Assembly: GCA_976551045.1 (NCBI GenBank)
Contig: CDPCPM010000012.1
Location: 2,046,001-2,110,000 of the forward strand
Length of the DNA: 64,000 nt
Direction of reading: 5' to 3'
Source: Glaucostegus cemiculus
Taxonomy: Eukaryota
Part shown: piece by piece, positions 28,255-63,211 of the stretch
Numbering within the stretch: the stretch's first letter is position 1
Layout: each line of letters begins with the position of its first letter
The notes under the pieces: generated by a model
What the model saw: the letters and a program-made list of their open reading frames with translations, nothing else
The model's database searches: none
Told to the model about the DNA's origin: nothing
Made by a program: the position numbers and the translations under genes

Positions 28255-29005
28255 AGAATCAAAAATCAGGTTTATTATCACTGACTTGTATGTCATGAAA
28301 TTTGTTGTTTTGCAGCAGCAGTACAGTGCAAAGACATAAATAATGCATAAAAAAGAGGAATAATGAAGTAGTGTGCACGGATTCATGAACCATTCAGAAA
28401 TCTGATAATGGAGGGGAAGACACTGTTCCTGAATCATTCATTGTGGGTCTTCAGGCTCCTGTGCCTCCTCCCCGATGGTAGTAATGAGAAGAGGGCATGT
28501 CCTGGATTGTGAGGGTTCTTAGTGATGGATGCCACCTTCTTGAGGTACCACCTCTTGAAGATGTCCTCGATGGTGGGGAGGGTTGGGCCCGTGATGGAGC
28601 TGGATGAGTCTACAACCCTCTGCAGCCTCTTGTGATGCATTGGAGCCTCCATACCAGGTAGTGATGCAACCAGTCATATTGCTCTGCATCATACATCAAT
28701 AGAAATTTGCAAGTCTCTGGTGACATAATAATTCTCCTCAAACTCCTAATGGAGTAGAGCCATTGGCATGCCTTCCTTGTGATTGCAACAATGGGTTGGG
28801 CCCAAGATAGATCCTCTGAGATGCTGATGCAGAGGAACCTGAAGCTGCTCACCCTTTCCGTGGCTGATCCCTCATTAAAGACTAGAGTGTGCTCTCCTGA
28901 CTTCTCCTTCCTGAAGTCCACAATCACTTCCTTGGTCTTGCTGACGTTGAGTGCAAGGTTGTTGTTGCAACACCACCCAACTAGCCGAACTCTCTCTTTC
29001 TTGTA
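28255..29005 (-). mobile_element. Rex1/Babar LINE 3' fragment
   Basis: ORF 28610-29014: WCCNNNLALNVSKTKEVIVDFRK...ERVSSFRFL.ISISEDLSW; HPGHALFSLLPSGRR-like motif; (TGATTC)-type tail. Related 3' ends near 665-790 and 33135-33440. Confidence 0.9.
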
Positions 29006-29309
29006 TGCCTCCACATCACCATGTGTTGATTTTAAATAAAGTAGGTAAAGAAATTACAGAAGCTTTAGCTTTTATCTGCCAAAGGTACTTTAATGCAGAT
29101 ATTGTCCATTTATATTGGATAATTGCAAATGTCAGTGCATTATGTAAAGATGAGAGAAAGATGGTAGGAAATTATGTCTCTCTGGTTCAATAACAGTTTT
29201 TGGGAAGCTATTGAATTCTATAATTAAGGACAGAGTTACTGAAAAATTGGAAATGTAAGCTGAGTAATAAAAACATATTTTATAAAGAGTAGAACAGGAT
29301 ACACTCGTA

Positions 29310-41569: not shown

Positions 41570-41912
41570 CCAATAACAGCACAGAAGGCGGCCATTTGGT
41601 CTATTGGGTTCATACCATCTTCCAGGAGAGCAATCTCATTAATCCCATTATCCCCACAATTCATTCTCTCTCACACAAGCCCACCAACTCCACTTTGATT
41701 CTTTTTGCCAAATTAAGCAACACTACAGTTTACAGTAAACCAATTAATCTACTATCAGTAAATCTTTGGGATGAAGAAAGAAATAGAAGGAAATCTGTGT
41801 GGTCAAAAAAAGAACATGCAAATTTCATACAGACAGCAGCAAGGTCAGGATTGAATCCAGATCCCCGGAGCCATGAGGCAGCAGCACTAACTGCTGCACC
41901 ACTGTGCCACAT
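41570..41912 (-). mobile_element. Older diverged V-SINE
   Basis: Minus GGCACAGTGGTGCAGCAGTTAGTGCTGCTGCCTCA head, GGGTTCAATCC B-box, TTTGCATGTTCT V-domain remnant. Confidence 0.7.
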
Positions 41913-42289
41913 GAGGTAGAATTAGTAGTGCAAATTTTTCTGAAGCTTTCATAAAGTGCTTAACTTCACATATGACTGAGTTTGAGACAATACGATGGGA
42001 ATCACCCTTCATCATTCATAGTTTGAATAAGTAAATATTATTGAATATTATTCCTGACAATTGTGATAATATATTATTAGGTGAAAGCAATCTTCCAAAA
42101 AACTCATAGTCTTTATAATGTGATGAATATATTCACTGAACCCATTAATTAAATATATTTCCCACAATAAAGTGGCACAGGATTCCATTAAATGTGTTTT
42201 CAGAAGGAGTTACTCTACAATAATTAAGTCAATCTTCGGTCATTAAACATATGTGAACAAATAAGTGTATTTCTCTGTGGTTACAAATC

Positions 42290-42295
42290 TTTATT
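42290..42295 (-). terminator. Candidate polyadenylation signal (AATAAA) of a short ADAMTS9 isoform
   Basis: Plus-strand TTTATT = minus AATAAA; first canonical hexamer I found downstream of the read-through stop at 44927-44929; followed by a U/GU-rich tract (minus TTATTTGTTCACATATGTTT). Confidence 0.45.
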
Positions 42296-44935
42296 TTTGT
42301 CTGTGGTGCAAGCTTTTTCTCTATAATTAGCTTTATATTGAAACTTGAATGACAAAGCTAGCGCTAGTAATGTAGAAACGACATGATACAAAACATTTAA
42401 CAAAATCCACAATGAAAATGAGCACCATCACACTAGTTGTTCATTGGCTAAAACTGTCCAAGTCAGTATCGGATTTTGTTAGATTATCTTGTATCTCTAG
42501 GATGAACAAACACAAATCTTTTTTCACTTATGATTAAATTTACACTGTAAAAACAGTTCAAAAACATTGTTTAATATTTAGGTTTAATATAAACCTGTCA
42601 ACTGTACAGAACTCTTTTGTACACATTATTAAATCAAATATATAGAAGATACATTTCTATGGATGTTGGCAATTAGCACCAGGATTCCCCACGCACAAAA
42701 ACATAATTAAACATTTCATCTGCTCAGAATATGCCACAATCATAATCTTTACTGTGCACCATAAAATATTTACACATTTTTAAATGGGAGCAAATACTTC
42801 ATTAATAAATTAAGCTCTTTAGCAATATGTACATTATTTTTTGTATATAAATGCTTAAATTGCCAGGGTATCTAATGTATAAAAGCAGTTATCCAGACAA
42901 AACTGTTGATATTACTTTTAAACCCAAATTTAATAAACTGTGAATGGAATAAAAAAACCTAGAAATAAGAGATAGTATCTCTGATCTATATATGACATTG
43001 AATGGAGAATATTGTGGAGGAGAGGCTCAAAATGATAAAAAAAATGAAAACATCACTGCAAACCAACAGCATCCTGTTTGTAAATATTTAGCAAAATTGT
43101 TTTAATACAGAATGTTTGTCCTTTTTGCCGCTGTACATTTGTTTATGTTATTTTACATGAAAGAGTGTGTCTACACTGCTCACAGAGAATCTGGCTCATT
43201 GGCAAGTCAGATTCATTAAATTATTCCCCAAGTGTTTTGCCACAAATTTGTTTTACATTAATAAGCATTTCCATTCTATTAACGTTCTTAATAAGCATAT
43301 CTGATAGTGGCAAGGCAGTTATGAGTTTGATTGGAATCCAACAAACTCCAATTTACTGAGGTCATTGGTTAATGTTTATGAGCTCATAGGTAAGACAAAA
43401 AAAAATCACCTTACCCAAAAATCAAAGTAACCAAGGCTAACATTTCCCACTGTAGACAGTAAAATGCAGGGGCATGTCTATGGTTTATCCATATTCACCC
43501 GTGTTTGCATGAGATGTTCCCTTGATTTTTCTTATGTACATGTGCAAAATGGAATTTTTTTCTGCTTTATAATTTGCCAGTGTGCACAGGCAATTCAAAT
43601 AGCTAATGTAAAATAAACCAGACAATCCTGTGTGCCTAATTACTCCAAAAGTTCAGTTTGTTAATGCTGCATTGTTCGGACCTGAGGTAACCAAAAAAAC
43701 TACAAAGGCTGGGAATGTGATCAAGAAATGAAGATATAAATAAGCACATGCATTTGAACCTTGGATCACAATACAAAAACATAATTGCCTAAGCACAGTC
43801 ACTTACCTGTGATACACAATCTTATCTGTGCATACATCACATCAATCAGTAACATTTCAACTGCTGTAGTAATTTTGCTGTATACCACGCCAGCGATTTA
43901 AATGTAAACACATTGACGAACACTGCACATATTATGTTCTCACAGAAAAACCTAAAATTATGGAGAGCTTTGACCAAGAACTGAATCAGTAAATTCCCTT
44001 ATTAACATGCTGTTTATAAGTTTCTGAGGTGATAAGTTGGTGTTCAAGTAGAGAGTGATTAGATCTATTGACCCTTTCTTGCATGTCTTGTTTTTGATAA
44101 GAAACTAAAAGACCATAATAGAAAACTACCTGAGAAGTTATGTGACAATTCAAAAATTACTTGTTAAATTTTTGAACTGACGTATTACTTCTTACAGACA
44201 TGAAGATGGGAACAGTAGATGGTACTGATGAGGAGACCAAGTAGCTTGGTCAAATTTTGATGAAGGATTTTTTGAAATACTTAAAGGAGATATAATTTGT
44301 TACAGCTGTACATACAGTTTGTAATATGACACATGCTGAATGCTAATATGATATTTTTAAGAGATGAGTGGGTTGAAGCTGGGTTGTGATGTCAGTTGTA
44401 CTTAAGCTATGAGGCAGAATTTAATGTTGCTTAGGTGGGTTCCAAGCCCCACCTGACTTTCAGTTCCATCTAAATTAATGGAAATGAAAATCAGTGAGTG
44501 CATATGAAGAATGATCAATTTGTCTCTGAAGCCAAAGTTCACCCCTCGGATTGGTGACAGTTTTGAGAGGTAAAATGGCCTTCCATAGCATAACACAAAT
44601 CCAATATCTCTGCTCAGTAAGAGGATGAACTTAAAAAGCCTACTAAATACTTAGAACCTAAAGACCTCAAAAGAGAGCAACCACAAGCTCCCAGCTAATT
44701 TTGTTATGAAAAGACACTTTTGCACCAATTGCCTGTGACTTGAGGTACATACTGTGTACTATTACTGGCCTTTATAATTATTAACAGCAGCACGGATTCA
44801 ATTCGGAAATAATAAATGTAAACTCACAAAGGTGAACATTTACAAAACTATACCCTGGCATTAAGCAAAACTTTTATAAACTAATGTATCCATAGAGTGA
44901 TGAACTAAGTTATATAAATAGAAGGATTATCGTAC

Positions 44936-45112
44936 CGAGCTCCAACGACCTCTGTGCCAGACATCATCTGTAGGACAAGCTCGAGTATTGCATTGTTCAC
45001 GGTCAGGAGGTTTGTCAAGAATCTCACAGTTCTGATCATTTAGCCTTTGGCCGTTTGGAAGCTGACAAATAACTAGTCTTGTTCTTGCTCCCCCACCACA
45101 GACCTGGGTGCA
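44936..45112 (-). CDS. ADAMTS9: ADAMTS9 exon, TSR10 and first residues of TSR11: [59 protein letters not shown]
   Basis: 177 bp, phase 0-0; tttatAG acceptor, weak donor TCG|gtacga; [15 protein letters not shown] matches recalled ADAMTS9. Last recognisable exon in the window. Confidence 0.95.
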
Positions 45113-46289: not shown

Positions 46290-47350
46290 GAATAAAAAGG
46301 AGCAGGATTAACTCCTTAAGCCTGCTGAGCCATTCAGTAAGATCACCCCTGATCCAGTTTTGGCCACAACATCACTTTTCTGCTCTTTCCCCATAGCCTC
46401 TGACCCCCCTGTAGTTTAACTGTCTGTCAATCTTGACCCTGAATGTATTCGATGACTCTGCCTTTGAAGCTCTCTGAAGTAGAGAATTCCAAAGATTTTC
46501 TAAGAAATTCCCACTTATCTTCATCTTAAAGGGGCAGCCTCTCATTCTGAAGCTCTATCTCACAGTTCTAAATAACCCCACCCTTTTCTAAATAACCTCC
46601 CATTCTCTTATCACCCTCCCTTTCACACTTGCTCAGAACCTTACATGTTTTGACAAGACCACCTTTCATAAATTTCTAAATGCCACTGAGTATAAATGCA
46701 ACCCACCCAACCTCTCTCAAATATCATCCCTTTCATCCCAAGAACCAACCTAGTGAATCCTCTTTGCTCTGCTTAAAAGGCAAGTATATCATTCCTTAAA
46801 TATGGAGGCTCAAACCGTATGCATTAAATATGGACGCTCAAACCGTATGCAGTACTCCAGGCATGGTCTTACCAGCATTCTGTAAAGTTGCTTTAAAACT
46901 TCCCTGCTTTGATACTCTATATCATTTTTAATAAAGACTAATATTCCATTCACCTTCCTAATTACTTGCTGTACCAGATTCCTTTGCATTGCAATGTTTT
47001 GTAGTCTCAATCTAGTTAAGTAATAGTTTGCTTTTTCATTCTTTCTTCCAAAGTGAATAACCTCACATTTTCCCACATTATCCTCCATTTGCCAATTTCT
47101 TGTCTACTCATTTAACCTTTATATAATCTTTGCAGGTTATCTGTGTTTTCTTATAATGTGCTAACCCACTTATCTTTGCATTATCATCAATTGTGGCTGC
47201 AGTACAATTGATCCCTTTGTCCAAGTCTGTAATATAGAATGCAACTCTTTGAGGCACCATGACATGGATTACCAATCTGAAAATTATCCATTTATCCCAA
47301 ATTCCTGATTTTTGATTGTTAAACAATTCCTAAGACATGCCAATATATTA
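46290..47350 (-). mobile_element. CR1 LINE 3' fragment
   Basis: ORF 46810-47088: NVGKCEVIHFGRKN...LYRMLVRPCLEYC. Confidence 0.88.
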
Positions 47351-47782: not shown

Positions 47783-47944
47783 CTCTCCCCAGTTGCCATA
47801 GATCCACTGAGGACAAGGACCAGATTCACAGGACCTAATTTCAACAGGCTTAGCCTGCTCAGCACAATTACTGGCATCATAACCATCTTCATTCTGGCAA
47901 ACCACAACACGTCGTTGGAACCCTCCAGCACAAGTACTAGAACA
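47783..47944 (-). CDS. ADAMTS9: ADAMTS9 exon, TSR9: [54 protein letters not shown]
   Basis: 162 bp, phase 0-0; ttttgtAG / GAG|gtgtgt. Confidence 0.96.
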
Positions 47945-49260
47945 CTACAAAAGAAACACAGCAGAAATTGTAGAAAAATTAAAAAAGGACCATTTGATGC
48001 CTAAGTGACTCCAAAGAAAAAATTCACTGGCTTTAAATTATAAGCAAAGTGTCATTGTCTTGAATAATTAACTCTGTTCTCTCGCCACAGCTGCTGCATT
48101 GGACCTCAAAATATCTAACAAGGCCTGAAGTACCATATAAAATTTAAAGCCTTTCTTTTGAATATTGAGGGACCAATTCTGGTAATAGTGTGAGATGGGT
48201 GCGAGAGTATCACTGGCATTTATGGAATACGTGCAAGAGAATCGAGAGAGATGGCCATGTGGCAGGACATTCTCAACATTTTCAGGAGCCCTGGAGAAGA
48301 ACAAGAAATTACACATTGCGATTTTGTAAGATGGGAAAGGTAAAAGAGCAAAGGGAAGCCTTTTGAGAACAGGGTAATCATTGTGTTTTGAAAGGAACAG
48401 AAACAGTGCTCAAATAAAATGAGGTATTAACAATCTCAGTAAGAAATAAAGAAATATACTTTAGGTGATTAGAACCAGTGGGGACAAAGGGGACAGATGT
48501 AGAATGGGCAAAAGTTTACGTCCAGCAGTACTGTAAATGCTGCATGGATTACCTCAAATTCTGAAACACAGAACTTCATAATCCTGCTGGGTGTGAAGGG
48601 TTGAAGGATCAAAGAACAAATTTTGAAGAGATGGTTTGTCATTACAGGAAGTGGCTGTGGTTGCCTCAGGAGTAATCCGAGAATAGTAGGAGTATTACAC
48701 CACTGAGAGCTGGGATCATTCATCCTTGATGTGGCTATGACAAATTTGGAGGTCAATGGTATTGGTAGTTTGTGCCCTATCTGTTCCAGTCTGCCTACTT
48801 CAGACAGAAGGATGCAGAAGTGACAAGATGGTGAATGACAATGTGAGGGGTAAAAAGCAAATCAGTGGGTTGAGTATGTCGCAGGCTGAATTGGAAAGGC
48901 CAATAGTGATAGAAGCTTCTTGTCCTGTTGAGAGGCCAGAAGGAGGAGTACTGATAAAAGCAATTGGCTAGTTTGTTCAGAGGGAATAAGATAATGGCAG
49001 CAGGACAAGGATGAGAAAGGAATGGTAGAGGAGATACTGTAGTGACTGTAGAGATCCTGTGGTAAGGATATATGAGATGGCAAGGATCAGACAGTGGGTG
49101 CTTGGGAAGAAATGTTGTGGTTAAAGTTAAAGAAAGGACAAGAAAGGAAAATACAGTGGAGAGGGAAAATGCAACTATTAATGAGAGCAAGTAGGAAGTA
49201 CAAAAACAGAGTAATTAGTACACATGTCCAAATAACCAACGTGAACCAACAATGACTTAC

Positions 49261-49512
49261 TGCTCCCCAAGGTCCAGTTCTCCACTGACTTCCTCGGAGT
49301 TGGGTATAATCTGGGTCACCATGTGTGGGCAACATCTTCGGACGAGGAAATAGGTGACTGTTGTGTCGATGACTACAAGATGGCATGGAGCACTCTTGTT
49401 CAGTTCGTGGCTGATCATCAGGGTCACACTCATTCTCACTAACAATCTGATTCTTGTAACTCATGCAAATCACATGACGTGTTGCTTTACCTTGGCCACA
49501 GGTCACTGAACA
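49261..49512 (-). CDS. ADAMTS9: ADAMTS9 exon, TSR8 plus linker 2: CSVTCGQGKATRHVICMSYKNQIVSENECDPDDQPRTEQECSMPSC...SQWRTGPWGA
   Basis: 252 bp, phase 0-0; atgtAG / GCA|gtaagt; QWRTGPWGA conserved. Confidence 0.95.
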
Positions 49513-49764
49513 CTACATTGAATAAAAAAAGATAAGAGCAGATGACACCCTTTATGTCTGAAACAACGTCAAATAAACAAGAAAAAAAAACTTAAGCTAA
49601 GCAAGATAAATTATGTAAAGAGGTATAGAGTAGACTAAATTCACCAATGTGGATCAGGTATAATGCCTTGAAACCTCAAAGATTCAAATAGGTAAGAGGC
49701 TCAGTTGCAGGTCAATTGGCATCTGATGGACAGGGAGCACAAATTACCATCTATCATTTATAAA

Positions 49765-50013
49765 ACAATAGCATAGCGGTTAGCGTGACGCTGTTACAGC
49801 GCCAGCGGTCGGAGTTCGATTCCCATCGCTGACTGTAAGGAGTTTGTACGTTCTCCCGTGTCTGCGTGGGTTTCCTCCGGGTGCTCCGGTTTCCTCCCAC
49901 ATTCTGAAAGACGTACGGGTAGGTTAATTTGGGGGTGTAAAATGGGTGGCGCGGACTCGTTGGGCTGAAAGGGCCTGTTACCACGCTGTAAATAAAAAAT
50001 ACTAAAAAAAAAA
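49765..50013 (+). mobile_element. Young V-SINE (HE1-like)
   Basis: tRNA-like head (GAGTTCGATTCC), V-domain, tail GGGCTGAAAGGGCCTGTTACCACGCTGTAAATAAAAAA. Confidence 0.9.
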
Positions 50014-50858
50014 TTTGAATTAAAATGCCAATTTACCACAACATGCCCACAACAAAGTGCAATCTGTGAATTATTGTGAAAGGGAAGTGGACATTAAAAA
50101 AAAATGTAGTCTGTTTAACATGGTAACAGGGGCATGATGAGGAACCCGACTTTAATTTAATGTGTATTTTCAAGAGCTGAAAAGAGCTTTTGACTTCTTA
50201 CCTGTAATTTTTTGCAAATCTAATACATACCATCCTCACGTTACATTTATAAAATATAAAGCAATGTGTACAATTCTTTCATTGTGGAAAGCTAGATAGA
50301 ACTCTCTGCATAGTAGATATTGAGATTTGCACCAGTTAATTACTTAAGCATCATAATTATAAGCAAGGAATGCTTGTTATAGGAAGAAAATATTTCATAA
50401 TTAATTTTGAGTTTAGAAAATCATACACTGAAATATAGACAGGCAAAGTGGGGAAACAAATTACCCCTCAACTCCCTGACATTGTTCCAGGAACATCACA
50501 ATGTTTTGCAGCTGTTATATTATTTACCAACAGAAGTCATGTTATTTTATTACTTGTATATGGTTCAGTGCACTGCATTATAAAACTGCAAAATAAATTT
50601 TTCAAGACAATGCAATCCCGACACTAATTGTGCAGAAAGCTGACAAGGATAAATGAATATTTTCAAATGAGCCATGCCTATTTTGAACATACGTCTACTT
50701 TTCACTAATACAACCATGTGCATTAAAACATTGGGTCTAAATTAAATATAGTTTTTTGACAAAATCCAATATGAATGGAATATAATGCTTCTTGTGAAAT
50801 ACCTCCAATGCCTATTTGGTTTAGCAGCTGTAATAAAGTTCAGGACAATATTTCTAAC

Positions 50859-51026
50859 CTGTGTCCATTCACGAGTCTTCCAACGACCACATGGGATAAC
50901 AACACATTCTTCTCTAGATGGCGGTTTTGGAAGATGCAGGCAAGCCGACTCATCAGCCACAGCACCATGGAGGTCACGACAGCTAACATATCGCTCTTTT
51001 GTTCCTTTTCCACAGGTAGCAGAACA
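50859..51026 (-). CDS. ADAMTS9: ADAMTS9 exon, TSR7: [56 protein letters not shown]
   Basis: 168 bp, phase 0-0; caacAG / CAG|gttaga. Confidence 0.95.
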
Positions 51027-51276
51027 CTGTTGAATGAGAATGGTTATGCGCATTTTGTTGGCAATTTCTTTTCAAGATAAACTTTAAACAAAACTACTTT
51101 TTTTAAAAAAGTCATGTTAATATTAACTTATAATGACAATAAATAAACAGTAATTGATATTAATTCACCATCAATGTCATAAATTATTCATTATTTGTTC
51201 ATTAATAGCTCTTCCTTATGTCATTTTATTGATTAAGTCATTACTTAATGTTAATAGTAAATTTAAATATGTATAC

Positions 51277-51384
51277 TGGAGTCCAGGATCCAAATCGCCA
51301 CTTAGTTGTGTAGGTCATTTGATTGGGTATTCTTTCGTCCCTTCCACCTGGATGTACATCAGGGCAAGAAGTTATTTCACAGTC
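51277..51384 (-). CDS. ADAMTS9: ADAMTS9 exon, end TSR6 plus linker 1: DCEITSCPDVHPGGRDERIPNQMTYTTKWRFGSWTP
   Basis: 108 bp, phase 0-0; ttacAG / CCA|gtatac; WRFGSWTP conserved. Confidence 0.93.
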
Positions 51385-51619
51385 CTGTAACATAAAACAC
51401 TTGGCTGAAAGTAAATTTATGTTTTCATGTCTTTCAATTAATAGTAATTATCTAAAAGTAAAATTAAATTTTTATTCCTAAGATCTCTCTGCCAAAAGCA
51501 GCTCAAAACTCTTCACATTTACAATTTTTTGATACTATTTTGCCTAATAAGATATCACAAACTACAATGACTTATAAGACCAATTGTTTTGGCATTGTGG
51601 TGATGTTACAAATAATTAC

Positions 51620-51739
51620 CTGTGTATCTCTAGGCCTGGTGGCAGCGTTGCATTCATTGTCATTGACAATTGTGCCATATGAGCCTGCAACACATCTTAC
51701 AGCTCGCATCTGATAGCCTGTCCCACATGTGGCTGTGCA
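51620..51739 (-). CDS. ADAMTS9: ADAMTS9 exon, TSR6: [40 protein letters not shown]
   Basis: 120 bp, phase 0-0; tttgcAG / CAG|gtaatt; CNAATRP.DTQ matches ADAMTS9. Not in the ORF track; translated by hand. Confidence 0.95.
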
Positions 51740-53329
51740 CTGCAAACAGGAGACATTTTTAACTCCTAGTCACAACAAAGACACATTTTCAAAGGTACCA
51801 TATAATGTTAGAGTTATAAAAACAATCAAAATTGCAAAATAATTTGCAAACTTTCATTTAACTGTATCATATTAATGGTCCCATCTCAGACCTGAGAAAT
51901 TTCCTAGACAGTGATCTTCTTTCAAGTACATAGAGAAAGAAGAGGAAGAGAATCAGAAAAGTAATTATCACCTTCACCATGTGGACAGCAATCTGACAGA
52001 GCAGAAATTAATGTAAAGAATATCAGGTAGATTCTACAGAGTGCAGACAGGTCACTATTATGTTTCCACCTGGTGAAATAAGATTTAGTGCAATTAAAAA
52101 ATTATAATGTTCGAGCATAAATAAAAAAGGGTGAAGACTGAACATTGCAGCTCTAAAAATTTAAGGGAACTCAGTTAAGAAAGATGAAAGTGAAAATGGT
52201 CAGAGACAAAAGATGTGTGCAGAGCAATGTTTATTACTGTGACAGAACACCTCATTTGAGACAATCTTGGATTAATCAAAGCTACAAAAGTTGAAAAAAG
52301 TATGACTTTCCAATGGATATCTTGGGAACATTATGTCTAATATCAACCATAAATTATGTATACCTGAAAAACTAGAAGAAATGATTAATACTTTCTATCT
52401 GATCACTTCTAGCTGACTTCAAGGGCCAGCTCAATAGTTAGTGCACATCATTCATTTAATGCTTTCAAATCATTATTTTCCCAGTGATTGGCAAACATGA
52501 CATGTGAATGCAAAATAAATCTATGTCACAAGTCTGTACTTATAAAACTCTTGCACATCAATACTTTTTCAAAAACATATGAACATTGTTTTAATTTTCA
52601 TATTTACTGCTCTTCTATATTTTTGAAAAAATGGAACTACTGAGATTAGAATCTTATAATATGGTTAGAACCAATTCAATAATTTTACAACATTTTTCTA
52701 AAAGGTATCCTACATGTTCCATAGAGTTAGAAAATAGGGATTTTTCACAGTATTACTTTTTGCATAAGGATATACAATCGTGAATTTCCTTGTAATTCAT
52801 CTTAGTTAAAGTATGCATTTTATTTTAGTAGGAAATCTATCTCATATTGTGGTGGGGAGGAGGAAAACCAATATAGCTCCAGGTTGCCTAGGAGTTTAGG
52901 GTTTCAGAGTAAATTTTGTCCTGAAATTCTCTTTTCTATTCTCCATCTCCAAATACTTATCCTTCACGCATTTGCTTACTCCCACTGGGCTACATGTATC
53001 GTCACACTGCCATAATTCACTCCCCTTCTATTACAATCCCCTTGCTCCTATCACATCCACTATCTTTTCCTTTTGAATTATCCACAATATCCTTCTCCCT
53101 TTCTTGTTCAACTGTCACTTGACTAAGGTAGAGGGAGAAGACATTTTAAGTTATACCAAGACTTTTTTTTAATTGTTTTTTTATTTTCTGTGTTGCAACA
53201 CCATGCACAAGTAATTTAGTTTTTGATCAGGACGGTACTGTTATAGATAGATTCCTTTTAAAAAGGAACTTTGTCATTTGAGATAAGAAAGTGAAGCTGT
53301 GACTTTCAGAGGTCTTCAAGGACATAAAA

Positions 53330-54640
53330 CATAGAAACACAGAGAAGTAGGAGGAGGAGGAGCAGGAGTAGGCTATCCGGTCTTTGAACCTGCTCTGCCA
53401 TTCAATACAAACATGACTGCTCCGTCATTTCAATACCATATTCCTGATTTCTCTTCATACCCACTGAGGCCTGTAGAGTCAAAAAATCTATCTATCTCAT
53501 TTTTAAATATCTTTAGTCACATCTTGCATCACCTTTTGCAGTACAGTATACCACAGATTTCAGGTTCATTACCCACTGAGTGAAGAAATCTCAATTTTGC
53601 CTCAACTCATTCCAAATGTCTTGCTGGTATCCAGAGACAGTAACCTCTTATTCTAGACCCTTCTCCTTCCACAACGATCCTCAGGGAAACATCCTTCTTG
53701 CACCCAGTCTGTGTAGCCCTGCCCAAATTTTGAATGTTGCAATGAAATCCCTTCTCATTATTCTAAAATCCAGCAAAATACTGTTCTAGTTAACCCACAT
53801 TTCTCCTCATACAACAGTCCTATTGTCCCAGGGATCAATCTGGAGAACCTTCGCTGTCCTTCCTCTGTAGGAAGTATATCCTTTGTTAGGTAAGACCACC
53901 GAAACTGCACACAGATTTTACCAATCCTATATAAATGTAGTTAGACACCCTTGCTTGAGTATTCAAAACCTCTTTCAATGAAGGCCAAAGTACCAGTAAC
54001 TGCTTGCAGGACCTGCATATGTGCTTTCAGTGACTGCTGTCACAAGGACATGAAGGTCCCTTTGTATGTCTACATTTCCCAATCTCCGGAACTCCACCAC
54101 CAAGGACAAAGGCAGCAGAAGCATGGGAAAACCACCACCTACAGGTTCCCCTCCAAGTCAAGCACCATCTTGACAAGATTTATAGCTGGTACTTCATCAT
54201 CATTGGATCTAAAGGCTGGCAATTCTTCCCTAACAGTACTGTGGGAAGACCTTCACTCAAAGGACTGCAGTGGTTCAAGAAGGCAGCTGACTATCACCTT
54301 CTTGAGGGCAGTTGGGGACAGGCAATAAATGCTGGCCTTGCCAGCAACACCCAGATCCCAAAAATGAATGTAAAATCTATCACCATTTAAATAGTATTCT
54401 GCTTTCCTGTTTTCCAGTCAAAATGGATAACAACATCTGCCATTTATTTGCACAGTTATTCAACTTGTCTAAAAGTGCCCTCTGCATCCTTCTCATAACT
54501 CACCATCCCACCAGGTTTCATGTCATTAGCAAACCAAGAAATATTATATTCGGCTCCCTAATCCAAATTATTGAAACATAGTGTAGAATAGCTGAAACCC
54601 GTTCCATAGCTACTTCTTTGTTTCCTGTCCATCAACCAGT
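53330..54640 (-). mobile_element. CR1 remnant with an inserted plus-strand LINE 3' end (54090-54375)
   Basis: CR1 tail AGGAGCAGGAGTAGGCTATCCGG near 53360; insert ends GGCAATAAATGCTGGCCTTGCCAGC. Confidence 0.75.
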
Positions 54641-55307
54641 TTTAGATCTCTGGCATGCAGATTATTAGGCCCTAGGGATTTATGGGTTTTCAATGCCACT
54701 AATTTCTCCTGCATTATTTTTCCACTAATACTACTGAAGGAAAATGGTGGTCTAAATATCCATCACTTCTACCAATTGGTGAGACAGAAATTTGAAGGCA
54801 GAAATTTAAGATAGCTTTTAAAGAATTAATGGGAGGGGAGAGGATGAGGCTGGGACACTTCTCTACTACAAACTTATTGAAGAAGGGTATGTAACTTTCT
54901 CACAAATACATTGATTTATGTAAAATGCATTAAAGCCAAATAAAATTAGTCAGGTCATTCATAAGAACACTAGTGCCATATTGATTGAGCTGTATTGTAA
55001 TGGCTCAAATGATTCTTTTTAAAATGTGTTTATGCAAAAAATGCTTTTGTTAAAAATAACAACATGGCATTAATATTGTGAGCTTGTGAGAGGAGATTTC
55101 ATGCACAAGGGCATGTCTTAATCATAACCCTGTGAATAATATTTTCTTTCTGATCATCCATCTGCTGCATAGTCTGCAGATACTTATCCACCCAGTTCCT
55201 TCTCTTTGTGAAATAAGTATAACTGTCGATGCAAAAGAAAAATTACAGTGAATGAATAAAAATTTCTATGAAAAACATGAAAGTTAAATGATAACATTAA
55301 AATGTAC

Positions 55308-55472
55308 CTGTCCCCATGGACCAACTTGCCATGCTGCACACTCCTGTTGTTGACAAGCTTGCGCTGACTCTGGTTTTGTTGCAGAGTTACAAAACCTATT
55401 ATCCAGTTGTTCTTCTCCAACTTGGCACCAGGTTTGACGATGCTTGAATCCCTTCCCACATGTCACTAAGCA
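55308..55472 (-). CDS. ADAMTS9: ADAMTS9 exon, TSR5: [55 protein letters not shown]
   Basis: 165 bp, phase 0-0; ttgcAG acceptor, CAG|gtacat donor. Confidence 0.95.
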
Positions 55473-55865
55473 CTGCAATTGACACCAGTTTAAATAGCAT
55501 GTACTGTTTCCACTCAAATTTCTTTATATTGGAACAGGCAAGTAATAAGCATTATTTTTCTTGATTTTTCTTGAGTTGAACAATTTTCTATCGCAAGCAA
55601 TGTGTTGTGAATGATGCAAAATTCTAGGTATTCAGATGTTTATGAATTCTAGCAAGGCAAATATATCCATAATTTGTTAAAACTCTGCTGTTCTCCAATT
55701 GCAATGTTGCGTCAAATATACTAAATATTCAACTTGAGGCTACAAGTGATAACAAATAATTAGCACCCTTCTCTTTAGAACATTTGGGTAACTAATTGAT
55801 AGACCTGAAATATGCCAGGGTATTTTTGTCATTATGGCAAGACAATCATTTGTAATTCTTTGAAA

Positions 55866-55987
55866 TCTGGGAGGAAACCCACACAGACACAGGGAAAACG
55901 TACAAACTCCTTACAGACAGTGGCCGGAATTGAACCAAGGTTGCTAGCGCTGTAATAGCGTTATGCTAACTGCTACACTACCGTGCC
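55866..55987 (-). mobile_element. V-SINE 5' fragment
   Basis: Head and partial V-domain similar to the three young copies. Confidence 0.8.
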
Positions 55988-56446
55988 TTCTCTGATGCTT
56001 GAACTGTGGAGCTTATTGACTAATAACATTTTTATACTAATAATGTATCTTCAGCAATTGATCTACAACATCATCAAATAAATGCACTCTGTAACTTGTA
56101 TAAGTTTTAGATGCATGGAATGCATTGGTCAACATTCTATTGCCCCTCCTGTGACCTATCGCAGGTCATTATTGAACATTACAATACAAAAGGGAATAGT
56201 AATGCTCAGAGGTAATGGGTGTCTACCAGAGTCATGCAGTATGTCACATGTATGTATATTATAAGATGAGCCTCTGGTGGGAATTCATCTGGATCAAGCA
56301 GATCAATTGGGGCAGAATATTTTCCCCACAGGTGCAGCACACATCAAGTATGTTCTGTATCAGGTGCCCAGCAGGGGGCCCCAAAGGAAAATTTATCCTT
56401 CAAAATGCTCTCTGTAACTTCTGCTATTTTATATATAGATATATAT

Positions 56447-56448
<2 letters not shown>

Positions 56449-56484
<36 letters not shown>
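56449..56484. repeat. (GT)n microsatellite
   Basis: Direct reading. Confidence 0.97.
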
Positions 56485-56489
<5 letters not shown>

Positions 56490-56601
56490 TTGAAATCAAG
56501 CTGCAGTAAGGTTGGAGGAAAAAGTTTTTTTTAAAAAAGAACAGAACTATCTTTTATTTTCCCAATAAAATATCAAGAAGCAAGAAGAAAACACAACTAA
56601 C

Positions 56602-56766
56602 CTCTGACCATTCTCCTGTTTTCCACACTGGGCATGTATATTCATTGCATCGCTGGATTATCATTTTCTCTTGTTGACTGCATTTGTTGTCTCCAAGAAC
56701 AGTCCCCATAGCATTGACACAAACTGCACTTCGCCTTCTTGTACCTCCACCGCAGCTCTTGGAACA
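56602..56766 (-). CDS. ADAMTS9: ADAMTS9 exon, TSR4: [55 protein letters not shown]
   Basis: 165 bp, phase 0-0; acceptor tataaAG, donor GAG|gttagt. Confidence 0.95.
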
Positions 56767-57174
56767 CTTTATACAGATAAACAAGTAGTAAATTAATTTA
56801 ATTCTCCAATTGTTAATGTTGTATGATATTATTAATATTTTTTTAAAAATTGAAGGGAAAACTATTCCCACTAAAAATACTATTGGGTTGTGTTTAGCAG
56901 AGAAATAATGAGTTTCCAAGCAACTATCAGTAATTTGGTCCTGATGCAGCAATCAGTTCTTCACCACTGTTCTTCCTATTGGGTTGAAGGGCCTGTTCTT
57001 TATGTGTTCTGTTCTGTGTTTTATGTTCCAAAAGAACTCTGACACAGAATTCCAAGTGGAGACAGGTAGGGAAACTTCAAGTTACTTTTACTCACCACTA
57101 ATAATAGTGGCATTAGTTAATACAGACTTTTTTTAACTCAGCATTTTAAAATACTTTACAATTTTAATGTTAAG

Positions 57175-58190
57175 CTTTGAGTTGCCCATACTTGGCCCAT
57201 ATCCCTCTAAACCTTTCCTATCCATGTAGTTGTCCAAGTGTTGTTAATATATCTGCCTTAACCAGTCCCTTTGGCAGCTCATTCCATATACTAATCATCC
57301 TCTGGGTGAAAAAGTTGCCCCTCAGGTTCCTATTAAATCTCTCCCATCACCTTAAATTTATGGCCTCTAGTTCTTCACTCCCCAACCTTGGGAAAAAGAC
57401 TGTATGCACTGCACCTATCTATGTCCCTCCTGGTTTCATAATCCTCTATAAGATCACATCTCATTCTCCTACCTTCCAATAAATAATGTCCCAGCCTGTC
57501 TGACCGCTTTCCATAACTCAGTCACTCGAGTCCTCGACAACAACTTCATATATCTCCTCTGTACTCGTTCCAGATTAATGGCATTTTTCCAATAGTGGGG
57601 TGACCATAAATAAACACAAGATTCTAAATGGTGCCTCACCAACATCTTGTACAACTGCAATATAACATCCCAATTTCTATACCCAATGACCTGACTGATG
57701 AAGGCCAGCGTGCCAAAAGCCTTCTTCACCACCCTGTCTACCTGTGATGCCACTTTCAGGGAACGATGTACTTGCACTCCTAGGTCCCTCCGTTCTGCAA
57801 CACCCCCTAGGGCCCTACTGTTCACTGTGAATGTCCTACCCTCACTTGTTTTCCGAAAATGTTATCTGAATTAAACTCCATTTGCCATTCCTTTGCCCAC
57901 TTACCCAGCTGATAAAGATTACTCTGTAAATCCTCATAATCATCTTCACAGTCAACTACACCACCTATTTTAATATCATCTGCAAACTTATGAACTATGC
58001 CTTGTACATTCTCATTCAAATCATTGATCAAGATGACAAATAGTAATGGGCCTAGCACCGACCTCTGGGAAACACCATTAGCCATGGACCTCCAGTGCGA
58101 AAAACAACCTTCCACCATCACCCTCTGCGTTCTACCAACAAGCCAATTCTGTATCCAATCACCTAGCTCTCCATGGATCCATATGCAAAG
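57175..58190 (-). mobile_element. CR1 LINE RT and 3' fragment
   Basis: ORFs with SQRSVLGPLLFVILINDL, KFADDIKIGG, RDLGVQVHRSLKVASQVDRVVKKAFG, LERVQRR. Confidence 0.95.
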
Positions 58191-58614
58191 TGTGTGCAAG
58201 GAAGATGAAGAAAAAGAAAAAATGCTAAATTCTGAAATGTATGATATTTTGTACAGAATAATTACAGTGATTAAAAAGTCAACAATCTCTTTTCCATAAT
58301 TGAATGTTGCTATTCACCTGCATCTAAAGAAAAGTAAACTTGTACTTGCAACATACAGTCAAATAAGGACATTTTTCCCTTTCAGTCTATGTTTCTTTTA
58401 TTCAATTTAGATTGTTGCAAGAAATATTTGATTTAATAATCTCAAGTCATGTAGGAACTGTCAGCTTTTGGTAATTTCTTCTCAGGGTAAAAATTTTTGG
58501 AATTTGTATTCCTTCTATATGATGTTATGTATTTATATCAGAAAATTGTGTACTTGATGATGATTGCAAATGCATAATTTTCCTCTGAGGAAATTTTTGG
58601 CACAGTACTTTAAA

Positions 58615-59870
58615 CCTAAAATGAAAACATAAAATGCCAGAAATATTAAGTAGGTGAGCAGCATCTAGACTGAAAGAAACAGAGTCTTTCATCAGAATTA
58701 CGAACCATTATAAATCAACAATACAAGGAGAGGTGGAGAGAACAAAGGGAGTACCTGTGATGAGGTAAAGACCGAGAGGGATTGAAAGACACTGAGGGTG
58801 CTAGTATTGGACAAGAGAAGGTGGTAAAGGCTTGTGAATTGCAGCTAATTTCTCCGGAGGAGATGCAAATAGTAGGTAAGATATGAATGAGTACAGGGGA
58901 GAGAGAGAAACAAAGCAAGCCATACTGGAACTGTGAATTACACAACAGTGCGGTTGCTGGAAATCTGAAACAAAAGTGCTGGAAATACCCAGAAGGGCAG
59001 ACAGCACCTATGGTGAGAGAAGCATTTTGTGTACTGCATTCACTGATCACAATAAGGTCTCCTCTATATCGGTGAAACTCAACACAATTTGTATGACTGC
59101 TTTGCTGAGTACGTCCATTCAATTTGCAAGTGTGACCATAAAGTTCCAGTTTCTTGTCACTTTAATTCTCTGTACCACTCACATATCCAACCTTTCTCTC
59201 TTTAGCCACTGACACCATTCAAACTAAGCCCAACATGATCTTGAAGAACAACAACCCATCTTCCTAAGTGGCATGTTGCAACCCTCAGAGCTCAATATTG
59301 AATTCAACAACTGTAGGTAACTAGTCTTTCTAGTTTTTGTCAGAACTAGCCAGTGATGAACTTGAAATGTTAACTTTGTGTTTCTCTTTCTATTGATGCT
59401 GTCGGACCTTCTGTTTTCCAGTACTAGCTTGCACTTTGGGTTTCCAATCACTACAATGCTTTGTATCTCACAGTGCTTGAATTGTTTGCTTTTTTTCCCT
59501 CTCTCTCTCTCTGTCTTTCAGTTCAATCCCCTCCAGACAGATCAGCCCCAACAATCCTTCACCAGTCTCTCTCAGACAGCACCTCCACTTCTGGAGTTAT
59601 TCAATTTCTCTTGATCTCCACCCGATAACACAACATTCTCCTTTGCTCTCTCTTCTCCGCACTCCACTCCCTTCTCTGCCACCAAAACGTGTTTGATTTC
59701 AAACTTTTCCTTATTCTGATGAAAGGTCGTCAACCTGAAATGTTAACTCTACTTCTTGCTACACAGAGGCTGACCGATCTGCTGTTTCTTTCCAGGATTT
59801 CCGGTTTTTATTTCAGATTTCTAGCATCTGCAGATTTTTTTTTGCTTTTCGATTATTGCTTTCGTATGAA
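58615..59870 (+). mobile_element. Penelope-like element remnant: GIY-YIG endonuclease pseudo-ORF (59026-59320) with direct and inverted terminal repeats
   Basis: FVYCIH*SQ*GLLYIGETQHNLYDCFAEY...PVSCHFNS...DLEEQQPIF...LQPSELNIEFNNCR*; terminal repeats near 58615, 58945 (inverted), 59340 and 59710. Confidence 0.85.
59712..59748 (+). ncRNA. Minimal type I hammerhead ribozyme motif in Penelope-like terminal repeat
   Basis: CTGATGA 59716-59722, extra A, stem II AGGT/ACCT (59724-59727 with 59733-59736), GAAA 59737-59740, TGTT then AACT (stem I 3' strand). Confidence 0.65.
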
Positions 59871-59994
59871 CTATCCCATCTTAATCAGGTATTAAGAGAC
59901 ACCACTTCAAAATTTAAATAAGAAAGCTAATGATGGTATCTACAATGCAGCTGTCCGAAGAGGGCTAGCACAGTACACCTGCATAAACCTACTG

Positions 59995-60047
59995 TAGTTA
60001 TCGTAGCACACATTAAAATTAGTTATCGTAGCACACATTAAAATTAG
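59995..60047. repeat. 25-bp tandem duplication
   Basis: TAGTTATCGTAGCACACATTAAAAT x2 plus TAG. Confidence 0.95.
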
Positions 60048-60339
60048 ATCAACTTCCACAAATGCATTTTACTTAAGTGACATCATCTTCATGTAAGAAT
60101 ATTTAACAAAATTTTCTTTGGGGAAGTGGAAGTTTTATCATATATCAGATATGACAGCATCACTCTTGTAAATCATAGATATATTTTGATTTTGTGTTTG
60201 TAAATAAACAAATGTACACACTTTTATAAAAGCATAGTGCTCCTATATGTCATTGATTCTTATCTCATAATTACTGCATATGTGAGTTTGGAGATATTGT
60301 TGTTATTCTCCAAAAAGAGCATTTTGGGAAATGACTGAC

Positions 60340-60550
60340 CTCAGACCATGATGAATACTGCCACCCTCCTGCATTGCAGTCTCCACGGCAGGCTTCCTTA
60401 TTATCTGGTTTTGCTTGATAGCTGCAGTATCTCTCGTCTATTTTTTCTGTCTTCCCATCTGATCTACTATATTTTGCACAGTAGAAATCCAAATTCCGAT
60501 AGCCAGGACCACACTGGGCTGTACATTCACTTTTTCTAGCAATATGCCAT
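60340..60550 (-). CDS. ADAMTS9: ADAMTS9 exon, TSR3: [70 protein letters not shown]
   Basis: 211 bp; phase 2 to 0; donor GAG|gtcagt; YCAKYSR.DGKTEK is diagnostic for ADAMTS9. Confidence 0.96.
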
Positions 60551-60721
60551 CTGTTCCAGAGTAAGCAGCATATGTTATTAATTAACCTAGAGCTTCACCA
60601 TTAGTTAACTTATTACTGGAAGGGCAAAATAATGTGCTGGGTATTCTTTACAGAGTATCTTGTTTATTATCTTTGTACATTTGCAACTGATAGAAACAAT
60701 TGCTTAGAATATCTATTTGCT

Positions 60722-61230
60722 GTTGTGCAGTTCTGATCACCATACTATATGAAGGATGTGATTAAGTTAGAGCGGGTGCAGAAAAGATTCACAAGGGTAT
60801 TGCTGGGATTTGGAAGGCTTGAGTTATAAGGACTGGATAGGGTGGAACTGTTTTCCCTGTTGCAGAGGAGGCTGAGTTATAGAGGTTTATAAAATTAGGA
60901 GGGGCATAAATAAGGTGGATGGTCACAGTATTTTCCCCAAGGGTAGGGAACTCTAAAAGCAAAGGGCATACATAAGCTTAAGATAAAAGGGGAAAGATTA
61001 AGTGGGACCTGAGGGGCAACTTTTCACACAGAGGGTGGTGGGCATTTGGAATTAGCTGCCAGAGGAATTGGTAGAGGCAAGTATAACGTTTAAAAGACAT
61101 TTGGACAACTATATGAATACCAAAGGGCCAAAAGCTGGAAAATGGGACTAGTTCAGGTAGGCACCTTAGTCGACATAGATGAATTGGGTCGATGATCCTG
61201 TTTCCATGTTATATGAGTCCATGACTCTAA
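60722..61230 (+). mobile_element. CR1 LINE 3' fragment
   Basis: CVQF*SPYYMKDVIKLERVQKRFTR; 3' tail GGGTCGATGATCCTGTTTCCATG. Confidence 0.88.
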
Positions 61231-62068
61231 ACAGAGTGCAGAAAATGGAAGTGATTTTCAGAAGCAGTGGACAGACTGCTGAGAGGCAGTTCGCCTTTAA
61301 GTCATAAAGGTCGTGGGTTGAAGTATCACTCTTGGACACAAAGCCTCGGATGACACTTCATTACTGTGTTGAGGAGCCACCTTTCTGGTAAACTCTTTAG
61401 ACTAAGACCGATCTGGCCTCTCTGGTGGCCTGGACATCATTATTTTCTCAACCAACATCACTAAGTAGACTATATGGTCCTTGCTCTATTGTGGATTTGC
61501 TCATTGCAAATTGGCTGTTACATTTCCTAAATTACAACAATGCTGCTAATGCAGAAGTATTTCACTGGCTGTAAACCATTTTGAACCATCCTGAGATCAT
61601 GAAAGATGCTACATAATGCAAATCTTTTTTCCTAAAAGATCTTACTGTGCCATTCTGGCACTAGAAAATTACAGTACGGTCCCATGGACAGTGTAAAACC
61701 CTGATTTAACTACTTCAATGAGGCCTTCATTTGCATTGCGCAGGATTGCTGACCAAATATTTTAAGGACCCTTGTGAAAAATGAGTTAGACATGCCTCAG
61801 GGATTCGGTGCCAAGTATATGCAGTTTGTAATGAATGGAAGTTACAACCCACAGGACAATTGCACTATATGATGGCACAGAATGGGCATGCGTGCCATCA
61901 GAGTTCAGCTGGAACCTCACCCAATTTCCTTCCATCATTTCATCAAGAGGCAGTAAGGAGAGGAGGAACAAGAACAGGTTTTTTGAGGAACATTAGAGAC
62001 AGTGTTGTGAGTGTGAATATAGATGACATTGCTGTCAATGCCCAGGCAACTATCATAAAGATATGTGT

Positions 62069-62329
62069 GGGGCGGCACAATAGCGTAGCGGTTAGCGCGA
62101 CGCTGTTACAGCGCCAGCGATCGGGGTTCGATTCCCGCCGCTGACTATAAGGAGTTTGTACGTTCTCCCGTGTCTGCGTGGGTTTCCTCTGGGTGCTCCG
62201 GTTTCCTCCCACATTCTAAAAACGTATGGGTAGGTTAATTTGGGGGTTTAAAATGAGCAGCGCAGACTCGTTGGGCCGAAAGGGCCTGTTACCACGCTGT
62301 AAAATAAAATTTAAAAAAATTTTTAAAAA
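62069..62329 (+). mobile_element. Young full-length V-SINE (HE1-like)
   Basis: GGGGCGGCACAATAGCGTAGCGGTTAGC head, B-box 62125-62135, V-domain, A-rich tail. Confidence 0.9.
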
Positions 62330-62510
62330 CCTATCAGACCACGTAGGCAGTAGCAATAAGATCCTATCATATGATTGGTATCTGTGCTATTTCTATTTCG
62401 ACTGGTGGCACAAGTCTGGCTTATGTGCACACAATAGTCAAATTATAAATGTTGTAAGTTAAGCAGTATTGTTTTAATAGGAAATATTATACAATTTGAA
62501 TATTTTGTAC

Positions 62511-62637
62511 CTTATTTCACATTCTGTATTGCATGATTCAGTAATTGGAGCTGGACGTGGTATTTGATCGCACCTTTGATCAGAGACAACCAACCGATCA
62601 CTTTCCCTAGTACAAATAGGTCTTCTTTTCCTTTCAC
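62511..62637 (-). CDS. ADAMTS9: ADAMTS9 exon, TSR2: (G)[41 protein letters not shown](R)
   Basis: 127 bp; AG/GT boundaries; phase 1 to 2; CTRESD.L.VSDQRCD is ADAMTS9-like, not ADAMTS20-like. Confidence 0.95.
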
Positions 62638-62808
62638 CTGTTTAAATACATGATGACATTAAAGAACTATAACAAACAGCTATGACAGCAGAGTAGAAAA
62701 ATTTTATCAGCGCAATTTCAAATTAGTAATCAGCAAAAGAAATTATTAATGGATATTAATGCTGGTTTGCTTTTTAGCTATTTAGGAGGGAATTATGGAC
62801 CTTCTTAC

Positions 62809-62938
62809 CTTGGCAAAGCCTGTTGCAATCCTGCCAAGGACCAAACTGATCCCAAAAGAAACGTTGTGCCTTATCTTCAATCGGAATGTTGAATGAATAT
62901 CGCACATCAGGATTGTATAGATTCCCCACAGACAAAAC
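62809..62938 (-). CDS. ADAMTS9: ADAMTS9 exon, end of spacer/start TSR2: [43 protein letters not shown](G)
   Basis: 130 bp; AAG acceptor after a 106-bp intron; donor AAG|gtaaga; phase 0 to 1; [17 protein letters not shown] matches recalled ADAMTS9. Confidence 0.95.
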
Positions 62939-63044
62939 CTTGCATGAAAAGTGCAACATTAAAAAACTAATCAACTTGTGTGGAAGGAAATCTACAACAT
63001 AAAACAATATTGTGCAGAGAATTGAACCATGCATGTTAATTTAC

Positions 63045-63211
63045 CTGAACTATTAGCTCTTCTTCAATCCGATCTGTACAGTTGATTCTTTCCACTCCAT
63101 TATCTGACCCACTATACTCAATTACAGCTCCTCTAACTTTAATTTCCCTTTTAAACATGCTGACCACAAAATCTCCATTTAAAAGGAATTCTCCACGACT
63201 GTTAGCCAAAG
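63045..63211 (-). CDS. ADAMTS9: ADAMTS9 exon, spacer domain: (A)[55 protein letters not shown]
   Basis: 167 bp; acceptor ttttctcAG, donor CAG|gtaaat; phase 1 to 0; matches recalled ADAMTS9 spacer (GEFLLNG..VV.M.KREI...IEYSGS...VERIN.TDRIE.EL..Q). Confidence 0.95.

Follow-up and report, generated by a model that had tools for sequence, protein, structure and literature searches.

ADAMTS9 is a secreted matrix protease whose last domain, GON, is found in the full-length protein of the sawfish relative Pristis. According to the available text of the articles concerned, mouse gastrulation requires the gene, which also functions in ciliogenesis, and GON served as the two-hybrid bait that found LRP1 (PMC6393521); GON was also reported to act in ER-to-Golgi transport (PMC3338439), and its role is called largely unknown (PMC12226136). 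The question raised by the ADAMTS9 locus of the ray Glaucostegus cemiculus is whether the coding sequence can also end early, by running on from the exon that completes the tenth thrombospondin repeat (TSR10) into the next intron. If jawed vertebrates in general retain a natural isoform without GON, the function of that domain becomes directly testable, and variants and probes located downstream of the TSR10 exon may touch only one isoform.

The locus was analysed in a stretch of 64,000 nucleotides (hereafter the window), in which the gene lies on the minus strand. Its assignment to ADAMTS9, already made in the preliminary description, was borne out by the identity of 642 of 650 residues (98.8%) with Pristis pectinata ADAMTS9, against 61-62% for the same 650 residues with shark ADAMTS20, and by a tree, rooted on amphioxus and built from 34 hand-picked rows, where the window gene nests within the batoid ADAMTS9 clade (support 99/98 for the ADAMTS9 clade and 100/98 for the ADAMTS20 clade). 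An ADAMTS20 identity, raised by the VR ending described below, is ruled out by the same identity values and tree. Twelve coding exons span positions 63211 to 44936:

47783..63211, minus strand: 11 upstream ADAMTS9 exons, from the spacer to TSR10, with introns of 106-3573 nt
44936..45112, minus strand: ADAMTS9 coding exon with the remainder of TSR10 and the first tryptophan strand of TSR11; its 59 residues are identical to Pristis ADAMTS9

No exon for TSR11-15 or GON was found in the remaining 44.9 kb below 44936, either by a motif scan or by tblastn with three full-length relatives and Pristis residues 1419-1901. Since these Pristis residues find no match there, the intron after the TSR10 exon must exceed 44.9 kb, as compared with the range given above for the other 11 introns, and the downstream exons of the ray would lie outside the window. 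A search for structured RNA gave no Rfam match anywhere in the window. Open reading frames on the minus strand at 57472-57861, 46813-47103 and 28613-29053 resemble fragments of LINE reverse transcriptases.

At the end of the TSR10 exon the following signals were located (a slash marks the exon-intron boundary):

44928..44938, minus strand: weak phase-0 5' splice site TCG/GTACGATA; its zebrafish counterpart is TTG/GTACGC
44927..44935, minus strand: read-through codons GTA CGA TAA, that is V-R-stop, with the TAA at 44929-44927

Both the V-R-stop reading and the weakness of the donor had been proposed earlier, and both hold. Donor strength was assessed by simple scores, a consensus count and the pairing with the U1 motif. 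The TSR10 donor agrees with the consensus at 5 of 9 positions and forms a U1 duplex of -4.3 kcal/mol. Among the window's 12 donors only one is weaker, CCA/GTATAC at 51277, which belongs to a 250-nt intron. A read-through tail as short as this occurs at one of the 11 other donors (63045, at the first exon, where the stop comes after 2 residues in a 106-nt intron), and a random GT in the window gives an equally short tail 16-17% of the time.

The fate of this junction in other species was followed in records collected by three homologue searches (54 of 54, 120 of 268 and 112 of 112 matches listed) and three cluster look-ups (up to 15 members listed per cluster). The matches listed include 509 named records; unnamed proteins, which comprise almost all of the 50%-identity representatives, were left out of the count. 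Among these 509, splicing continues in 401 and the exon is missing from 26; unrelated tails follow the junction in 16, another 4 finish with the exon itself, and 62 read into the intron. Within these 62 listed read-through records, 57 stop after 1-3 residues, a proportion that is inflated as a frequency, since most short records are gene predictions and predictors tend to stop ahead of very long introns, and that speaks for conserved DNA and not for transcription. The tails are VR in 15 of these 57 listed records, VRS in 30, VRP in 10, and VPS and V in one each; VR-stop, VRP-stop or VRS-stop is thus found in 55 of the 62. The five longer tails measure 5, 12, 24, 100 and 334 residues, and two teleost models run on past VRS. 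At other junctions one of 10 read-through tails was equally short (nine of 11-53 residues, one of 3), a small control, since the TSR10 exon was the seed of the searches.

The endings are distributed by gene and clade. VR-stop occurs in chimaera ADAMTS9 and in ADAMTS20 of catshark, paddlefish, four teleosts, frog, gecko and tinamou; VRP-stop in ADAMTS9 of titi monkey, camel, two voles, elephant seal, two vipers, tortoise, a passerine and sturgeon, the mammalian records being GenBank gene predictions; VRS-stop or VPS-stop in 31 of the teleost ADAMTS9 records listed; and V-stop in one cichlid ADAMTS20. The central idea of the preliminary description, an early in-frame stop possibly shared with ADAMTS20, holds and reaches further than it had claimed. 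The stop lies at codon 3 in some clades and at codon 4 in others, which indicates that it is preserved even though the bases differ, and the tails track gene and clade on the tree, so they were not copied from one template. Judged from the records compared, three residues that stay identical between mammals and sturgeon cannot stem from neutral intron DNA. All three named human records and the two named amphioxus records splice on, and the VR ending was found in none of the 15 members listed (of 50) of the elasmobranch ADAMTS9 cluster. The Narcine ADAMTS9 isoform X5 (P0056, a RefSeq model) stops precisely with the exon and so implies a different, spliced last exon beginning with a stop.

Two further observations were made in these records. 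At the later junction at Pristis residue 1588, read-through is seen in four records and an early end in a fifth, with unconserved tails of 6-44 residues, and this is a possible second, less constrained GON-less exit. The teleost ADAMTS9 cluster of record P0206 includes prickle2b proteins, probably because neighbouring genes were joined in a fused gene model.

Evidence at the cDNA level comes from zebrafish. According to the available text of bioRxiv 10.1101/2020.08.12.248716, full-length adamts9 was cloned from larval cDNA, and 3'RACE started from the TSR10 exon gave no GON-coding sequence; the stop-site primer given there reads TTG/GTA CGC TCA TAA and encodes TDQWSL/VRS-stop across the junction, the bases being imposed by the primer. 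Gene, junction and the G/GTACG donor are those of the ray, whereas the stop comes one codon later. The missing GON domain of zebrafish is called intriguing and left unexplained in the available text of PMC8058341; in the supplement of that article the RefSeq protein NP_001244125.1 departs at the same junction with a tail other than VRS-stop. This protein also carries a duplicated propeptide and may be partly mis-assembled. Long, GON-bearing models exist in other cyprinids, so the zebrafish form reads as a choice of isoform and not as a loss throughout the clade, and the conserved exit may explain why the zebrafish enzyme was reported without GON.

In salmonids the two forms are distributed between duplicated genes (tree of 28 hand-picked rows). 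One duplicate clade (support 100/99, 12 rows) holds 10 VRS-stop models, mostly of 1458 residues and often the sole RefSeq model, together with one that continues for 97 residues after VRS and one with a decayed tail; in the latter, an Ensembl model, the start of TSR11 is altered and GON matches as a fragment, with 56 versus 293 bits. The other clade (88/90, 11 rows) holds 10 long forms and one VRS-stop. From these models one salmonid ADAMTS9 duplicate appears fixed as the short form, in rows drawn from clusters with short and long representatives, where a long form of the first copy could be missed; the pattern suggests that the ancestral salmonid gene made both forms and that one copy kept the short form alone. 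In salmon and frog the short forms lack GON and carry, besides the central TSR, 9 C-terminal TSR matches, in support of the earlier proposal of a 10-TSR, GON-less read-through product.

We consider it probable (about 0.78) that the TSR10 exon and the region beyond it form a composite terminal exon whose 3' end arises by intronic polyadenylation. A weak donor followed by a large intron is the described signature of poly(A) sites of this class (PMC3708835, available text), and the ray locus combines a weak 5' splice site, a large intron and a conserved in-frame stop. Under this proposal the exon at 44936..45112 would be the 5' portion of the composite exon, and the weak G/GTACG donor would open a very long intron at which, most likely, recognition by U1 competes with cleavage at a downstream poly(A) site. 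Where U1 commits to the donor, splicing would add TSR11-15 and GON to give a full-length protein of about 1900 residues; where cleavage at a poly(A) site some 1.8-2.6 kb beyond the donor comes first, the exon would run on and translation would end after V-R. The short product would have about 1420 residues (Pristis numbering) and comprise propeptide, catalytic core, spacer and TSR1-10, without TSR11-15 and GON. Use of the short isoform in this ray, the position of its 3' end and a balance set by U1 and cleavage factors are putative. The short enzyme would retain proteolysis and lose the GON-dependent functions: GON being linked to LRP1 and to ER-to-Golgi transport, the short form should cut matrix but without those functions. 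Because a weak donor with a stop two or three codons in is kept in both ADAMTS9 and ADAMTS20, the switch would most simply predate their duplication.

The same conservation could be read differently, with the first 9-12 intron bases kept as a splicing element, the stop as a by-product and the short database proteins as artefacts of prediction. This is improbable. It agrees with the predicted nature of most short records and with the 401 listed records that splice on and the 16 with unrelated tails among the 509, but a by-product would hardly be retained at codon 3 or 4 according to clade in spite of differing bases, and neither the zebrafish cDNA and RACE, as given in the available text, nor the salmonid partition fits artefactual proteins.

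Another explanation rests on a second donor inside the intron:

43798..43809, minus strand: full-consensus donor CAG/GTAAGT (43806), 1.13 kb inside the intron, with a U1 duplex of -12.9

The weak donor would here be bypassed and the one at 43806 spliced to the TSR11 exon, and the early stop would send the extended transcript to nonsense-mediated decay, as a poison exon extension that controls dosage and yields no short protein. This explanation predicts a conserved early stop just as well, and the two teleost models that extend beyond VRS agree with it. The minus strand of the window, however, has four CAG/GTAAGT donors, so the one at 43806 is unremarkable; the zebrafish 3'RACE without GON sequence, in the text available, speaks against decay, and the apparent fixation of a salmonid duplicate on the short form with an intact protease frame would make little sense for a product destined for it. 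We regard this explanation as quite improbable. A pyrimidine-rich AG/GT junction near 44129 (44121-44145, minus strand) resembles a recursive-splicing point.

That the ray gene simply ends at the TSR10 exon, having lost its downstream exons as one salmonid duplicate apparently has, with the region as its only 3'UTR, would agree with the lack of any downstream exon within 44.9 kb; it is very improbable, as splicing on to TSR11 is modelled in each of the closest relatives, Pristis, Mobula, Leucoraja and Narcine (X4). Least probable of all is a short form made by a separate spliced last exon, for which Narcine X5 and the divergent tail of NP_001244125.1 speak and against which stand the 57 short records listed and the zebrafish primers, all showing read-through, though the two routes may coexist.

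For the composite terminal exon, 130 hexamers on the minus strand were ranked as poly(A) signals by an ad hoc score, and three candidates are of note:

42570..42588, minus strand: ATTAAA pair (42588 and 42575; ranks 1 and 6 of 130), preceded by three UGUA and followed by a U/GU-rich tract
43101..43106, minus strand: ATTAAA with three upstream UGUA, the proximal candidate (rank 3 of 130)
42290..42295, minus strand: AATAAA, the distal candidate (rank 25 of 130), formerly proposed as the 3' end

On this ranking the ATTAAA pair is the better-looking candidate, in place of the AATAAA, a hexamer that is if anything under-represented in the region (1 observed against 2.8 expected). The region between stop and poly(A) candidates, and the one microRNA match of marginal standing in it, are:

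42265..44926, minus strand: putative 3'UTR of the short isoform, otherwise the start of the >44.9-kb intron; about 2.35 kb to the ATTAAA pair and 2.65 kb to the AATAAA
42674..42681, minus strand: miR-29 8mer seed match, marginal

A 3' end near 42560 would retain this 8mer and lose the miR-29 7mer at 42421-42427. The assignment of 42674..42681 to miR-29 follows the seed given in the preliminary description. That description had seen in the region a regulated 3'UTR; the positions of its motifs were reproduced (the two miR-29 matches, a miR-30 8mer at 43903-43910, TGTAHATA Pumilio elements at 42767, 42826 and 43533, and the AATAAA), but most are not enriched above chance. With 2000 dinucleotide and 500 trinucleotide shuffles, and P values uncorrected for post-hoc choice, the miR-30 8mer is at chance level (P=0.19-0.24), while the miR-29 8mer (P=0.05) and the two miR-29 sites together (P=0.03-0.05) are marginal before correction. 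Of all possible A-ending 8mers, 4.9% are found in the region, so that 2.4-4.9 chance 8mers are expected for 50-100 miRNA families. The three Pumilio elements reach P=0.005-0.02, yet the opposite strand likewise carries three. Functional regulation by miR-30, miR-29 or Pumilio is thus not upheld. A density of three TGTAHATA per 2.66 kb is confined, within the window, to about 42750-44410, where both strands show it.

The region had further been singled out as free of transposons, unlike most of the window. Repeats were assessed as self-similarity within the window by a relaxed self-BLAST, a stricter one, covering 5% of the window, being too insensitive. In the relaxed run self-similarity amounts to 2.3% of the region versus 13.7% of the window, a low content that is not distinctive, as 8 of 24 equal-size bins (one of them overlapping the region) lie at or below 2%; the region itself includes one 60-nt self-match (44133-44192). 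Compared by tblastx, it showed no match elsewhere in the window. A repeated, SINE-like element, detected by self-match, lies at 41574-41906, just downstream of the putative UTR.

Composite terminal exons are a textbook mechanism, and the short mouse ADAMTS20 and the GON-less zebrafish Adamts9 are likewise already known. The short mouse ADAMTS20 presumably has about 1425 residues and a VR ending. In the available text of the articles, a mouse cDNA of the Adamts20 'short isoform', made from embryo mRNA, is the construct described for a versican-cleavage assay (PMC2265537), and two ADAMTS20 and three ADAMTS9 variants are noted (PMC549037). A conserved intronic polyadenylation switch at this junction was not found described in the open literature, in a search that mostly did not cover subscription journals, nor was anything that links the short mouse ADAMTS20 and the GON-less zebrafish Adamts9 as one switch or predicts it in mammalian ADAMTS9; the portions available of PMC4349717, PMC549037, PMC4448532, PMC3712723, PMC8275829, PMC12226136 and PMC10267602 do not mention the junction.

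A wider proposal is put forward only tentatively, being somewhat less than evenly probable: that a GON-less ADAMTS9, with a VRP ending in mammals, is made throughout the jawed vertebrates, also in humans, by a polyadenylation switch inherited from the ADAMTS9/ADAMTS20 ancestor. Such a switch would separate matrix proteolysis from the GON-dependent roles in trafficking, uptake and cilia, would account for the 'missing GON' of zebrafish, and would have had its isoforms split between gene copies after the salmonid genome duplication.

Several known systems resemble the one proposed here. The mouse Adamts20 short isoform is a short form of the paralogue, the gene in the ray being ADAMTS9. In CSTF3 intron 3 and IgM (PMC3708835, available text), as proposed for the ray locus, a weak donor and a large intron accompany an intronic poly(A) signal and the loss of a C-terminal domain, the poly(A) signal of the ray being a candidate; FLT1/sFlt1 and the ADAMTS2 short form (PMC3712723, available text) belong to the same class of composite terminal exon intronic polyadenylation. 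Unlike CSTF3, IgM, FLT1 and ADAMTS2, the ADAMTS9 exit is conserved across two paralogues, adds two to three residues and is apparently partitioned between salmonid duplicates.
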